64,000 nucleotides of DNA from a virus. Positions 52,869 to 64,000 of the stretch are shown piece after piece (position 1 is the first letter of the stretch; each line of letters starts with the position of its first letter). A program made the translations under genes and the position numbers. The notes beneath the pieces were generated by a model, which did not search any database, was not told the DNA's origin, and saw only the letters and a list, made by a program, of their open reading frames with translations. The stretch lies in IMG/VR virus record IMGVR_UViG_3300030099_006533; one strand, given 5' to 3'.

Positions 52869-53046
52869 TGCTGAAGCCATTGACATTGCAGAGGGCATGG
52901 TCGAGCCTCAGAGCGAAGAAGAATACTATGCAGCATGGCAACACCTTATTGATCGCGGGCTTGCGTGGAGTCTGCAAGGATGGTTTGGGAGAACAGCGCA
53001 CCGACTCATCCTGGCGGGGCATTGTCGCCCACCGGATGCTGCTTGA
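52861..53046 (+). CDS. Small hypothetical phage protein
   Basis: AWQHLIDRGLAWSLQGWFGRTA; ATGA coupling. Confidence 0.55.
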   Translation: MTDAEAIDIAEGMVEPQSEEEYYAAWQHLIDRGLAWSLQGWFGRTAHRLILAGHCRPPDAA

Positions 53047-53096
53047 CAACTTTTTTTCATTTGGGCCTTGACAAACGAACCTGGAGCCATTATATT
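53043..53096 (+). promoter_or_regulatory. sigma70 promoter with one extra upstream TTGACA
   Basis: TTGACA 53043; -35 TTGACA 53068; 17 bp; TATATT 53091. Confidence 0.7.
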
Positions 53097-53113
53097 ATAG
53101 GTGGAGGTTAGGA

Positions 53114-53356
53114 ATGACAGACAGACCATCGAATGTTTCAGGCTCTTCGTCTACCGAAGAGGTCGATGTGCTCACTGCCGAGCTTCGCGCCATGAACTTC
53201 GCGAAGAACCTGATGTATAGCACCCAGTTCCACGAGATTCTACCATTGATTGAGGAGATTCAGCAGTGCGACGACGATGACCCTAGGCTGTTGCTTATCA
53301 ATGCTGTGTTGAATGAGGCCCTCGAAACTTTCCCCCTTGCAGATTGCGACGTATAA
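53114..53356 (+). CDS. Hypothetical protein
   Basis: After promoter; SD GGAGG. Confidence 0.55.
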   Translation: MTDRPSNVSGSSSTEEVDVLTAELRAMNFAKNLMYSTQFHEILPLIEEIQQCDDDDPRLLLINAVLNEALETFPLADCDV

Positions 53357-53632
53357 ATGAAGACTGTTATTGTTATTGACACCGAAGATCCTACCGGCAT
53401 GGAGAGCACCCGGCTCATCGTGGATCACCTGATGAAGACCCACCATAAGATTCCTTATGATAGAAACGATCCGTTTGGCTCTAAGATCCAGGCGATCAAA
53501 ACTATCCGTGAGTATGTCAGATTCTGCAAGGAACACTGGCCCGATGACTGGCAGGACGCTATCGGTTCCCTCCGCGCGTCGAAGTCTTATGTTGATTCGC
53601 TCACCAATGCTAAGTTCTCAACGAGACTTTGA
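53357..53632 (+). CDS. Ribosomal L7/L12 C-terminal-like protein
   Basis: KIQAIKTIRE..GSLRASKSYVDS resembles KIAVIKAVR..GLKEAKDLVE. Confidence 0.5.
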   Translation: MKTVIVIDTEDPTGMESTRLIVDHLMKTHHKIPYDRNDPFGSKIQAIKTIREYVRFCKEHWPDDWQDAIGSLRASKSYVDSLTNAKFSTRL

Positions 53633-53859
53633 TGGGAACGCACAGACAAAAGGTAAACTTTGAGATGGGCGAGCTGGTTAGAGTGGTCGATAACACTTTT
53701 CAAGAGGGAATGTCGCCCACCCGCGTGGGGGTTATTACCGGAGTCGGTCAAGACGATTCGGGTTTCCACACAGGGGTGTATGAAGTTCTCTTCGCATCTA
53801 GCGAGGGCACACTAAAGATGCAGTTCTGGCACAAGTTTTTGGAGAAGGTTGTAGTATGA
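53629..53859 (+). CDS. Small SH3/KOW-like protein
   Basis: FEMGELVRV..VGVIT..YEVLF. Confidence 0.55.
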   Translation: MMGTHRQKVNFEMGELVRVVDNTFQEGMSPTRVGVITGVGQDDSGFHTGVYEVLFASSEGTLKMQFWHKFLEKVVV

Positions 53860-54179
53860 GACAAGTCATCCTTGCATTTATTATCGGATTCACAGTCACC
53901 GCATGCACCGAGCGTGCAGTTCGCAATGGCGGTACTTCCGCACTGGAGCGGCGATGTGAGCCGGTGCTTGCCGAGATTCTACAGATTCAGGATCTGAGGC
54001 TGCTCAATAATCACGCCCTGAACCACAAGAGGGCTGAGGGTGTTCTGACTCCTGACGATGTTGAGTCTTGGAAGGCTGTGGAAGAGGAGCTTGGTTCGCG
54101 TGTGAACCATCTTTATAATGTCGCTGACCGTCGCAAGTGCTTTGATGGTGTCGAGCAAATGTTCTTGACATTCTCTTGA
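53856..54179 (+). CDS. Putative lipoprotein
   Basis: Signal peptide ending VTAC. Confidence 0.5.
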   Translation: MRQVILAFIIGFTVTACTERAVRNGGTSALERRCEPVLAEILQIQDLRLLNNHALNHKRAEGVLTPDDVESWKAVEEELGSRVNHLYNVADRRKCFDGVEQMFLTFS

Positions 54180-54219
54180 CAAAAAAGTTCTTGCAATCCA
54201 AAATCCAGCGTGGTATATT
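54165..54219 (+). promoter_or_regulatory. Phased-hexamer early promoter
   Basis: TTGACA 54165, TTGACA 54176, -35 TTGCAA 54191, -10 TATATT 54214. Confidence 0.8.
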
Positions 54220-54242
54220 ATAGAAGATGAAAGGAGAGCCCC

Positions 54243-54575
54243 ATGGCCGATTGGTATGTAAGTCAGGTAAATGTTCGCGAAGGCAACCCCGCAGAGGGAG
54301 AGCCCGCGCTAGTTGTCGATGAGAAGGTGCTAACCATCAAGGCACCGTATCGAGCAGCGCAGCGTTCTTATAACGTATTCCGCTCACTGGGCACGCCCAA
54401 CATCGGGCTTTATCCGTGGGAGACTAACAAGAAGTCTTATGCTGCATCACTCAAGGCACAGAAGCGCCGCAAGTCTAAGAAGCTGACGAAGGCTGATCTG
54501 GCCCCCGCTCTCATGGAGCTTGCAAAGGAGGACGCAGCGCGTGAAACCGCAGAGACAGAAACTCAAGAGGGGTGA
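54243..54575 (+). CDS. Hypothetical protein
   Basis: SD AAGGAG after promoter. Confidence 0.6.
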   Translation: MADWYVSQVNVREGNPAEGEPALVVDEKVLTIKAPYRAAQRSYNVFRSLGTPNIGLYPWETNKKSYAASLKAQKRRKSKKLTKADLAPALMELAKEDAARETAETETQEG

Positions 54576-54741
54576 TCTAGTGACCCTCAAACGTGTGGGC
54601 GCACCAAACTATAGAGGTATCGTATTGGAAACCGATGAATCTCCCATCTGGCCCAGCGCACGGATCATCTTCTATACAGATTCTTATAGCAAAGAAGTAA
54701 CAGTAAATCAAAACCTATATGGACTAAGGAAACTAACATGA
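54541..54741 (+). CDS. Small SH3/KOW-like protein
   Basis: LKRGDLVTL..RGIVL; start uncertain. Confidence 0.45.
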   Translation: MKPQRQKLKRGDLVTLKRVGAPNYRGIVLETDESPIWPSARIIFYTDSYSKEVTVNQNLYGLRKLT

Positions 54742-62180: not shown

Positions 62181-62434
62181 TGTCACGCCAGCATCTTCAC
62201 TTTCGATGTCCCCGGGTCGGTGATCTTGTTCACCCACTTGAGCACAGTGTAAAGTCCAACCGACGATCCGGGGCCTATGCCGATACCGAGCGTGTGGGCC
62301 TCGTCATCGAGAAGGACGGCCTTGACATACTGGTGCAGTTCACAGGCGAGAAGGATGACGCCGGGGATCCTCACCGACTCTGGTACAGGCGTACCAATGT
62401 CATCACCATCGACGGAGTGACAGAGATTCCTTGA
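62177..62434 (+). CDS. Small SH3/KOW-like protein
   Basis: PRVGDLV..VGLVIEK..LVQF. Confidence 0.55.
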   Translation: MMSRQHLHFRCPRVGDLVHPLEHSVKSNRRSGAYADTERVGLVIEKDGLDILVQFTGEKDDAGDPHRLWYRRTNVITIDGVTEIP

Positions 62435-62485
62435 CAAACACTTGACAACTTAGGGCTTGATCTTTCTAGATGGGGCATGTATAAT
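62431..62485 (+). promoter_or_regulatory. Phased-hexamer early promoter
   Basis: TTGACA 62431, TTGACA 62442, -35 TTGATC 62457, -10 TATAAT 62480. Confidence 0.85.
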
Positions 62486-62513
62486 ACTGGGGTAAGTTTG
62501 AGAAAGGTAAACT

Positions 62514-62717
62514 ATGAAGTTTCAGCCCGCCATGTTCGCAAAGGTAGGTGACCTGCTCTTCTGGTCGAAGTATGCAGACATGACCTCGCAGTCTCCGAAG
62601 ATGCACGAGTATGTGGGCATCTGCACTGGGCGCGAGTCGGGCATCGTCCACCTGATCAGCGCAGAGGGCCGAGCGACGAAGCTGAACGAAATATACCTAT
62701 TGATTTCAACTACTTAG
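62514..62717 (+). CDS. Small SH3/KOW-like protein
   Basis: AKVGDLL..VGICTG. Confidence 0.5.
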   Translation: MKFQPAMFAKVGDLLFWSKYADMTSQSPKMHEYVGICTGRESGIVHLISAEGRATKLNEIYLLISTT

Positions 62718-62721
62718 GCAA

Positions 62722-62788
62722 ATGACAAATCCCTTGACATACTCTTTACAAAATAACCCTTGATCTTTGAATCAAGCTAGGCTATAAT
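62722..62788 (+). promoter_or_regulatory. Phased-hexamer early promoter (three upstream hexamers)
   Basis: ATGACA 62722, TTGACA 62734, TTTACA 62745, -35 TTGATC 62760, -10 TATAAT 62783. Confidence 0.85.
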
Positions 62789-62832
62789 ATGTATGTAAGG
62801 TTGAGGAACGCCCAATAAAGGAGAGAGAGAAC

Positions 62833-63729
62833 ATGGGAAACTACAACGGAACAGTAAGGTGCGGATACTGCTACGAGCGCGGCCACAACGCGGCGGCATG
62901 CCCGAAGAAGAAGGCGCGCGTCGATGAACTTCGCGCATCAGACCCGGACCACTACATGGTTCGCGAGTGGGACCGCAAGGCCGACAAGCGTAAGCAGCGC
63001 GCCACTGGTAAGCGTGTCTGTGCCTACTGCATGGCGCACCGCAAGACCCGCGACTCGTGGGACTGGCGCAACATGTCCGAGGACGAGAAGGCTGAGAGCG
63101 GCATGATCGAGGCTACCACGAAGGATCGCTGGGGCGATACCGTCACCACTGGTGTCGAGGTTGACACCCTCTACGGCACCGAGGGCGAGCGTGGTGTGGG
63201 TCACTCGATTCGTGCCTGCAAGTACCGCAAGGCTGACATTGCTGACAAGACCAGCGAGGTCAAGTGCTCGCGTGTCAACCACCTGAAGCGCATGCTCGCC
63301 ATCGGCTACGGCCCGGGCGCAACCGTCGCTTTCGCAGACGACTGTCAGGCTCACGATGTGACCCCGGGCACCTTCGCCATCACCGACGTCGCATGGCACC
63401 GGCTGGGCCTTGAGGGCCTGAATGGCGACACCGCCTATATCAACGAGACTGTGGCGAATGCGAAGCATATCGCTCACCTGTTCAACCCAAACCCGCCATA
63501 TGGCTCGCTGAGGAACGTCACCCTTCCGATGGATGCGCTCGATGTGGACACGGACGGCTACCGCTCTCGGTACACCGACCGCGTTGCCACTCTGGTCACC
63601 CGCGCGTCGGAAGAGAAGGTTCGCAACTCGATTCCTTTCGGCTGGGCCGATGGCACCGATGACAAGACTCAAGAGGCCATTCTTGAGGGCCTGATGGATG
63701 GCGTCAAGACCCGCAGCAAGAAGAAGTAA
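62833..63729 (+). CDS. CCHC zinc-knuckle protein
   Basis: RCGYCYERGHNAAACP; second CAYC..GHSIRAC; SD AAGGAG. Confidence 0.65.
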   Translation: MGNYNGTVRCGYCYERGHNAAACPKKKARVDELRASDPDHYMVREWDRKADKRKQRATGKRVCAYCMAHRKTRDSWDWRNMSEDEKAESGMIEATTKDRWGDTVTTGVEVDTLYGTEGERGVGHSIRACKYRKADIADKTSEVKCSRVNHLKRMLAIGYGPGATVAFADDCQAHDVTPGTFAITDVAWHRLGLEGLNGDTAYINETVANAKHIAHLFNPNPPYGSLRNVTLPMDALDVDTDGYRSRYTDRVATLVTRASEEKVRNSIPFGWADGTDDKTQEAILEGLMDGVKTRSKKK

Positions 63730-63949
63730 ACTTGAGCAGGGAGCCTGAGAGCCATTCTGACGGCCCCGGGCTCTCTGCCTGACCCTTCACCCTTCCAAAC
63801 CCCCTGACGGCCCTCACAGGGCCTTACAGCCCCCGCAAACAGTAAACTCTGGAGAAACCTTTGACCGCACTTGCCATCCTTTACACGATTCCGCTCATCG
63901 GCCTGTGGGCCGCGGCCCTTTTCGGCTTCGGCATCGCGATTTCGAGTCC

Positions 63950-64000
63950 TTGACAAACTCTTTACAACTTTCCTCTTGATCTTTTGGTCAGCATCGGATA
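63950..64000 (+). promoter_or_regulatory. Phased-hexamer early promoter (truncated by window end)
   Basis: TTGACA 63950, TTTACA 63961, -35 TTGATC 63976, 17 bp, TA.. at 63999. Confidence 0.75.

Follow-up and report, generated by a model that had tools for sequence, protein, structure and literature searches.

What reads a hexamer that looks like a -35 box but does not lie at -35? The question is raised by an uncultured marine T4-like phage of about 190 kb, of which we analysed positions 1-64,000 of IMGVR_UViG_3300030099_006533 (hereafter the window), reading the stretch from 53 to 64 kb directly with its promoters laid out in register. Ahead of each of eleven promoters in this stretch lie two further hexamers of the form TTKACA, here called H1 and H2 (the boxes, or together the doublet). 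The order is always H1, H2 at +11 bp, the -35 box at a further +15 bp, a 17-bp spacer and the -10 box. A preliminary description of the window had listed these eleven quartets, and every one of its coordinates is correct (Table 1). We refer to them as three-box promoters.

Eleven three-box promoters in one block of the window

A search for TTKACA-N5-TTKACA found 11 exact doublets in the 64-kb window, against 0.04 +/- 0.20 expected from 100 dinucleotide-preserving shuffles. All eleven are on the + strand and within 54165-63966, with none elsewhere in the window. The spacing statistics that had been proposed as a check agree with this, as among all TTKACA pairs less than 40 bp apart in the window only the 11-bp distance is enriched. 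The core of each quartet is a sigma-70 promoter, with a 17-bp spacer in 11 of 11 and a score of 9-11 out of 12. Further upstream copies reported at 57179, 59447 and 62722, and a partial copy at 53043/53068, are all present. The upstream hexamers had also been said to lack a matching -10 box; none has a usable -10 partner, although a weak CAAAAT match does exist at 54176.

Contigs from Tara Oceans that are identical to the window lengthen the sequence by 10 kb beyond its end (positions there are window-equivalent and marked ext). They contain two more doublets, at ext 64867 and ext 66228, which brings the phage to 13, and no doublet in the 7.5 kb that follow the second of these. The observation itself is therefore solid.

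The design marks a family of marine phages

Three-box promoters characterise a family of uncultured T4-like phages from the sea, whose genomes measure about 185-205 kb. When IMG/VR was scanned by pattern for the three boxes alone, at least 119 stretches were recovered, many of them on contigs of 185-205 kb, and 106 of the 124 loci retrieved share proteins with the phage studied here and its relatives; the other 18 are mostly single matches, at about the level estimated for chance. Each of five complete genomes of the family (185-203 kb) has 9-13 doublets, all on one strand and in one 10-15-kb block of small early genes, compared with 0-1 for a reversed-pattern control.

Amino-acid identity among these five genomes and the window is 46-55%. 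The orthologous promoters before the genes for a MoxR-like ATPase and a VWA protein keep both boxes and their spacing in 6 of 6 genomes, while the bases between the boxes differ, so that the combination of fixed spacing and variable intervening bases noticed in the window is also true of its relatives. Because the boxes are kept in orthologous promoters of such diverged genomes, recent duplication or gene conversion cannot be their sole cause. Six Tara contigs, at 99.2-99.96% identity, are too alike for selection on the boxes to be tested with them. The clade-wide comparison is strong.

The boxes are restricted to one class of promoters, as other sigma-70 promoters of the family genomes are without them. 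In the phage itself, a second sigma-70-like class precedes replication and metabolism genes (8993, 9479, 12760, 13795, 28156, 36598, 38570 and ext 71876); it is built of TTGACW, a 17-bp spacer and TGT-TATATT, in which TGn is usual, with an A/T-rich UP-like tract. The preliminary description had allowed such core-region promoters at most one degenerate copy of the hexamer, and all those within the window are indeed without a doublet. The existence of two promoter classes suggests two temporal or regulatory programmes.

The two boxes act as one rigid unit

Spacing was surveyed with the core promoter alone as anchor (TTGAY-N18-[T/G]ATAWT; 379 non-redundant promoters in the loci) and the boxes left to float, a doublet being called at 10 or more of 12 matches with H1-H2 distances of 9-13 bp allowed. 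A doublet was present at 333 of the 379 promoters; H1 and H2 were 11 bp apart in 330 of the 333, and the distance from H2 to the -35 box was 15 bp in 306 and 14 bp in 24. The same offsets as in the window recur in 312 of 397 promoters of the relatives. The spacer between -35 and -10 is mostly 17 bp and is 16 or 18 bp in about 15%, with no compensation for the box distance. Given that box spacing is rigid while this spacer varies without compensation, the unit is tied to the -35 box rather than to the -10 box. The two boxes thus act as one rigid unit, tied slightly less rigidly to -35, and not to -10.

The full unit is CTTKACA-N4-CTTKACA(A), 18 bp long, with a C ahead of each box in 84-96% and T or A after it (box consensus cTTGACAw), and the core promoter that follows consists of -35 TTGAC(t), a 17-bp spacer and -10 TATAWT, with partial TGn. 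Assuming a start 7 nt past the -10 box, the boxes lie at -61 to -56 and -50 to -45, and the unit covers about -62 to -45 with its centre near -53. The preliminary description had proposed a direct-repeat operator of one helical turn at about -61/-50, read by a phage sigma-4 protein, by a host OmpR/PhoB-type dimer, or through extra contacts of sigma or of the alpha C-terminal domain. The rigid 11-bp spacing, its conservation across genomes of about 50% identity and its confinement to one promoter class support the operator reading, whereas two of the three readers are weakened by the evidence below.

Boxes and true -35 elements are constrained at different positions

Counted against TTGACA at positions 1-6, H1 has 43, 1, 26, 0, 0 and 9 mismatches (n = 306) and H2 has 17, 0, 47, 0, 0 and 0 (n = 306). 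For the true -35 element, tallied with only the doublet and the -10 box as anchors, the numbers are 1, 12, 15, 29, 45 and 218 (n = 281). The boxes are thus of the nTnACA type, fixed at A4 and C5, fixed or all but fixed at T2 and A6, and tolerant at positions 1 and 3. The true -35 element keeps TTG best and is free at position 6, its commonest form being TTGACT. This is the usual profile of sigma-70 -35 elements, in which TTG is most conserved and position 6 least, A6 being barely read. The opposite patterns in boxes and -35 argue that the reader of the boxes is other than sigma region 4, and we infer from these sequence profiles that two different readers act on look-alike words.

Candidate readers in the phage and in possible hosts

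The phage encodes a sigma-4 mini-protein of 89 aa (Table 1), which had been put forward as a reader. It is a genuine Sigma70_r4 protein (Pfam E 1.7e-10) and can be aligned to region 4.2 of sigma as seen in solved complexes with -35 DNA. The window and three of the five complete relatives, G007, G008 and G009, have it. In the other two, G006 (12 doublets) and G010 (13 doublets), searches by protein, with Pfam and with a family profile all failed to find a homologue. The boxes as operator of this protein are disfavoured, as protein and boxes were not found together in these two genomes. The residues of the family that align with R584 and E585 of sigma-70 are L/F and S/x, and since the equivalents of R584/E585 are lacking, specificity for TTGACA is not to be assumed. 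Four cysteines that never vary and a CRxWIDYEED motif precede the helix-turn-helix throughout the family, which suggests that a zinc-binding module has been joined to a solitary sigma region 4.

There are 84 protein families common to all five complete genomes. Pfam scans of 30 small shared proteins gave only a sub-threshold match to the Fis-type HTH_8, in one 120-aa family. A 112-aa protein whose gene adjoins that of the sigma-4 protein occurs in 6 of 6 genomes compared and is a candidate DNA binder; it is ribbon-helix-helix-like by eye only, and neither a Foldseek search with its AlphaFold model (pLDDT 74) nor a profile search of the PDB returned a match.

On the host side, a search for the full architecture in one genome per species (185,579 species) gave 10 single matches in unrelated taxa and no genome with more than one. 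Three matches in Bacillaceae were considered as a Pho promoter and dismissed, as they are an arsR-arsB promoter. A search for hosts with the GMP reductase returned metagenome proteins only. The photosystem gene psbA was not found in the five complete genomes, which argues against cyanobacterial hosts. One perfect three-box promoter lies at about 2,078,700 in CP070664.1 ('WOR-3 bacterium bin77 chromosome'), a 2.8-Mb metagenome-assembled genome that also has a few kb encoding proteins 50-70% identical to those of the phage family; this locus is probably a chimeric join or a captured fragment and is not evidence of a host.

Comparison with known promoter classes

That no described promoter class has this geometry, as the preliminary description stated, holds within the literature searched, yet the design is a variant of ordinary upstream direct-repeat activator sites. 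As at the sites of the OmpR/PhoB family, half-sites of 6-8 bp with a core of the xTxACA / TGAC type are repeated directly once per helical turn, the spacing within the pair is rigid and the pair is centred about 50 bp upstream of the start, where such sites activate. The Pho box of E. coli is CTGTCAT-N4-CTGTCAT with an A/T spacer and takes the place of the -35 element, the PhoP sites of B. subtilis are TT(A/T/C)ACA repeats, and half-sites of the xTxACA type resemble those of OmpR, RpaB and PhoP. The unit shares the 7+4+7 geometry of the Pho box read by PhoB, but its repeat is CTTKACA, its spacer is TTCTC-like and it lies 15 bp upstream of an intact -35 element, so we do not count it as a Pho box.

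Among phage systems, the CII sites of lambda (TTGC-N6-TTGC at pRE, pI and pAQ) straddle the -35 element with a 10-bp period and make up for a poor -35. They too are direct repeats of a -35-like word in phage promoters, a tetramer read by a phage activator in the case of CII, whereas the repeats described here are wholly upstream, have an 11-bp period and accompany a good -35.

The HLR1 element of RpaB consists of two 8-nt (G/T)TTACA(T/A)(T/A) repeats 2 nt apart, with a 10-bp period, and activates where it is centred about 50 nt upstream (PMC6525291). Half-site and position are similar, but the period of the boxes is 11 bp (330/333) and not 10, and they are not HLR1 elements. The early 'uber' promoters of T4 have the order UP / -35 / TGn / -10 (Hinton 2010, PMC2988021). 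Both these and the three-box promoters are host sigma-70 promoters in a T4-type phage, drive groups of small early genes and combine a near-consensus core with additional conserved blocks ahead of the -35 element, spaced by about one helical turn. The blocks of T4 are A/T-rich UP elements for the alpha C-terminal domain, whereas here they are G/C-containing -35-like heptamers with an invariant ACA at -61/-50, and this phage has in addition an UP-like promoter class without boxes.

An operator for a DNA-binding protein as the preferred explanation

The explanation that we prefer, and to which we would give about an even chance of being right, is that the three-box promoters are a separate, family-wide class of host sigma-70-type promoters in which the box unit is an operator for a DNA-binding protein other than sigma-70 region 4, most likely a dimer of the OmpR/PhoB kind. 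An ordinary core promoter and the rigid 18-bp upstream unit would together drive the accessory early-gene block, the unit being the predicted operator of a sequence-specific protein distinct from sigma-70 region 4. The most likely binder would be a head-to-tail dimer of the OmpR/PhoB winged-helix kind, whether a host response regulator or a phage protein. From its upstream (class I) position it would touch RNA polymerase, either the alpha C-terminal domain or sigma region 4, and the operator would give the accessory early block its own control, apart from the UP-type promoters. The sequences themselves show that the boxes exist, as well as their geometry, their conservation, their restriction to one promoter class and their distinct base constraints; binding of a protein to the boxes, the type of that protein and its contact with polymerase are what we infer from the arrangement of the sequence.

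Of the three readers proposed in the preliminary description, the OmpR/PhoB-type dimer remains in our analysis the best geometric fit, as head-to-tail dimers of that family in an activating position typically occupy a 7+4+7-bp repeat with an 11-bp period and a centre near -53. That the core promoters are strong slightly favours modulation or shut-off; that the genes presumably occupy an immediate-early position favours a factor already present in the cell. A rather unlikely form of such a factor would be one present at DNA entry, injected or an essential host regulator, for which the box pair would be a docking site and which would hand host RNA polymerase to the phage promoters by means of the -35 mimic.

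Several results weigh against the operator explanation. The half-site is exactly the sigma-70 -35 consensus, an odd coincidence for a transcription factor, and the core promoters look strong enough without an activator. No phage OmpR-type domain (Trans_reg_C) was found in four complete genomes, and the survey of host species described above gave no sign of a host promoter class being mimicked. As to start sites, Logan contigs of two marine metatranscriptome runs yielded short pieces at depth 2-7, of which some span promoters and none defines a start.

Competing explanations

If the boxes were extra RNA polymerase contacts, they would be either -35 mimics that catch region 4 of sigma-70, in the same or in a queued holoenzyme, or a substitute for an UP element, and could serve as an antenna that outcompetes host promoters right after infection. 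A consensus, cTTGACAw, that exactly contains the universal sigma-70 -35 element and is unchanged across genomes of about 50% identity is what would be expected from a reader as conserved as sigma. The T4 early promoters likewise have additional conserved upstream blocks (PMC2988021), and the A/T-rich UP-like tract of the second promoter class of the phage occupies the same slot. Sigma contacts nevertheless fit poorly, as boxes and real -35 elements are constrained at different positions: A6 is (all but) invariant in the boxes, which vary at T1 and G3 and hardly or never at positions 4-6, and no -10 partner lies 16-18 bp downstream of them. A holoenzyme on a box 15 or 26 bp upstream would, judging from known footprints, clash with one on the real promoter. 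An UP element would be an A/T-rich tract with runs of A and of T between -59 and -38, read in the minor groove. The interval from -62 to -45 does not resemble one, as it contains G and C, with an invariant C and G/T positions (CTTKACA twice), the A/T-rich tracts being those of the promoters without boxes. On balance, we consider polymerase contacts unlikely. We regard it as very unlikely that the boxes, and perhaps the -35 element too, are bound by the 89-aa sigma-4 protein in order to shut off or boost the early block. The genuine region 4 match, the alignment to region 4.2 and the homologues in three complete relatives speak for this, and its absence from G006 and G010 and the replaced R584/E585 equivalents speak against it; moreover, its gene lies in the middle region, and the protein would be absent at time zero unless packaged.

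A more specific form of the operator explanation names CenR as the host reader, and thereby marine alphaproteobacteria as hosts. CenR is an essential OmpR-family regulator of alphaproteobacteria with TGA-N8-TGA upstream of the -35 element in activated operons (PMC9275681). This motif has the same 11-bp register as the boxes, published sites, TGACGGGATATTGAC among them, have the TGAC-N7-TGAC pattern of the box pair, and a regulator that is essential would always be present (PMC9275681). The conserved G of CenR, however, falls on a tolerant position of the boxes family-wide and is T in 9 of the 13 second boxes of this phage. The motif as published is degenerate, and our data give no hint of an alphaproteobacterial host. 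We consider CenR quite unlikely. Highly improbable, in our estimate, is a 55-60-bp cassette kept mainly as a module for recombination and gene shuffling, with boxes that have no regulatory reader, in the manner of the PeSL cassettes of T4-type phages (PMC4122927). The resemblance is that conserved early-promoter cassettes recur between the small, variable genes of a hyperplastic region, and several of those in the window match almost perfectly for about 45 bp. PeSLs, however, include a rho-independent stem-loop terminator, which the cassette here is without: 11.5 kb contain 3 terminator-like sites where 8.5 would be expected, and box promoters are preceded by none. Conservation here resides in the boxes and their spacing and not in the whole cassette, the spacers vary where the boxes do not, and orthologous promoters keep the boxes across deep divergence, so we do not class the cassettes as PeSLs. 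Conservation driven by homology would not single out positions 2, 4, 5 and 6. A shuffling role of the PeSL kind may well coexist with a regulatory one, but cannot explain the position-specific conservation.

Gene context and further features

Nearly all genes of the window are on one strand; they include those for a DnaE-type polymerase, DnaB, ribonucleotide reductase, GroEL, ClpP, GMP reductase and a gp32-like single-stranded DNA-binding protein. Many Tara Oceans assemblies contain the phage, the longest contig measuring 190 kb. Its box promoters sit among short open reading frames (ORFs) of a hyperplastic block, and the last four precede genes conserved in all relatives, for a 298-aa CCHC protein, a 273-aa protein, the MoxR-like AAA_5 ATPase and the DUF2201/VWA protein. 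The last two are kept in 6 of 6 genomes at 50-72% identity and are, as far as their sequences predict, a conserved early chaperone-like pair. A search of IMG/VR by peptide patterns gave no relatives of the 298-aa protein. As for cultured phages, megablast of the region and blastn of the consensus promoter against 50,697 phage records gave no match, and the nearest (Microcystis phage Mel-JY01, Flavobacterium phage 'immuto' and Bacillus phages) are related at about 30-46% in single proteins only. Mel-JY01 has two doublets, which are unrelated.

Table 1. Three-box promoters and associated genes of the phage (ext, window-equivalent positions beyond 64,000)
Feature	Position	Strand	Description
Degenerate first member	53043..53096	+	TTGACA, TTTTCA at +11, -35 TTGACA just 14 bp on, -10 TATATT
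Three-box promoter 1	54165..54219	+	TTGACA / TTGACA / -35 TTGCAA / -10 TATATT
Three-box promoter 2	56600..56654	+	TTGACA / TTGACA / -35 TTGACA / -10 TATATT
Three-box promoter 3	57190..57244	+	TTGACA / TTTACA / -35 TTGATC / -10 TATATT; extra box at 57179 degenerate, CTGACT
Three-box promoter 4	57963..58017	+	TTGACA / TTGACA / -35 TTGACC / -10 TATATT
Three-box promoter 5	59459..59513	+	TTGACA / TTTACA / -35 TTGACT / -10 TATATT; extra TTGACA at 59447
Three-box promoter 6	60053..60107	+	TTGACA / TTGACA / -35 TTGACT / -10 GATAAT
Three-box promoter 7	60692..60746	+	TTTACA / TTTACA / -35 TTGATC / -10 GATAAT
Three-box promoter 8	61448..61502	+	TTGACA / TTTACA / -35 TTGATC / -10 TATAAT
Three-box promoter 9	62431..62485	+	TTGACA / TTGACA / -35 TTGATC / -10 TATAAT
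Three-box promoter 10	62734..62788	+	TTGACA / TTTACA / -35 TTGATC / -10 TATAAT; in front of 298-aa CCHC protein gene (62833-63729)
Three-box promoter 11	63950..64000	+	Truncated by window end; -10 is TAGAAT in identical Tara contig L013; in front of conserved 273-aa gene
112-aa protein	31837..32175	+	Adjoins sigma-4 gene; candidate DNA binder
Sigma-4 mini-protein, 89 aa	32450..32719	+	Four N-terminal cysteines and sigma-70 region 4 helix-turn-helix
MoxR-like AAA_5 ATPase	ext 64933-66057 (L013 12152-13225)		Own three-box promoter
DUF2201/VWA protein	ext 66308-67585 (L013 13476-14753)		Own three-box promoter

In at least five promoters, the ORF ahead takes its stop codon from the TGA of an upstream TTGACA box, so that the end of one gene and the boxes of the next promoter are fused; the ORFs are 53856-54179, 56346-56603, 57786-57977, 59846-60067 and 62177-62434, with stops at 54177-54179, 56601-56603, 57975-57977, 60065-60067 and 62432-62434, respectively. 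The form TTGATC, which includes a GATC (Dam-type) site and may be sensitive to methylation, serves as -35 in 7 of the 13 promoters of the phage (57216, 60718, 61474, 62457, 62760, 63976 and ext 64893) and is rare in relatives (10 of 281). Directly 3' of the -10 box, several box promoters have the leader (G)TATGTAAGGTnGAG(r)AAC (61503-61525, 62789-62811, ext 64005-64025 and ext 64922-64945), which is found again in orthologous promoters of relatives, including the MoxR promoters of G007, G009 and G010. At window position 54180, the A-run that follows the second box of promoter 1 is longer by one A in a metatranscriptome contig (run X4), which would make the distance from box to -35 there 16 bp.

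At the downstream end of the box-promoter block, relatives have denser arrays of 4-7 TTGACA boxes, mostly in an 11-bp register and some without a normal core promoter (L007 8245-9100; G010 180789-181010; G009 4912-4990; L009 6900-7010, - strand). The arrays are followed by a conserved G-run/C-run element (GGGGnnCCCCCTCCCCCC...GAATnTATGTCTC). Its role may be that of a small RNA, an origin or a further binding platform, and it was not seen in the readable part of this phage.

Implications for the phage family

These phages are abundant in the ocean, as judged from Tara Oceans assemblies and from more than 100 IMG/VR contigs found by motif alone. Their three-box promoters form a large class, with hundreds of instances, that is information-rich (about 66 conserved bp) and rigid in geometry. 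What this window adds is the argument from constraint profiles, two complete genomes in which no sigma-4 protein was found, and the comparison of orthologous promoters.

The class defines a set of genes, including the conserved MoxR-like ATPase/VWA pair, that would be co-regulated at the start of infection, and the box pair is a ready-made bait for its reader, which could also identify the hosts. It is in addition a natural experiment in promoter biology, in which a -35-like word is reused upstream under different base constraints. Should the boxes prove to be the docking site of a factor present at DNA entry, they would represent a new route of polymerase hijacking in T4-type phages without MotA/AsiA, and the promoters would define a clade-wide immediate-early regulon to which the MoxR-VWA pair belongs.

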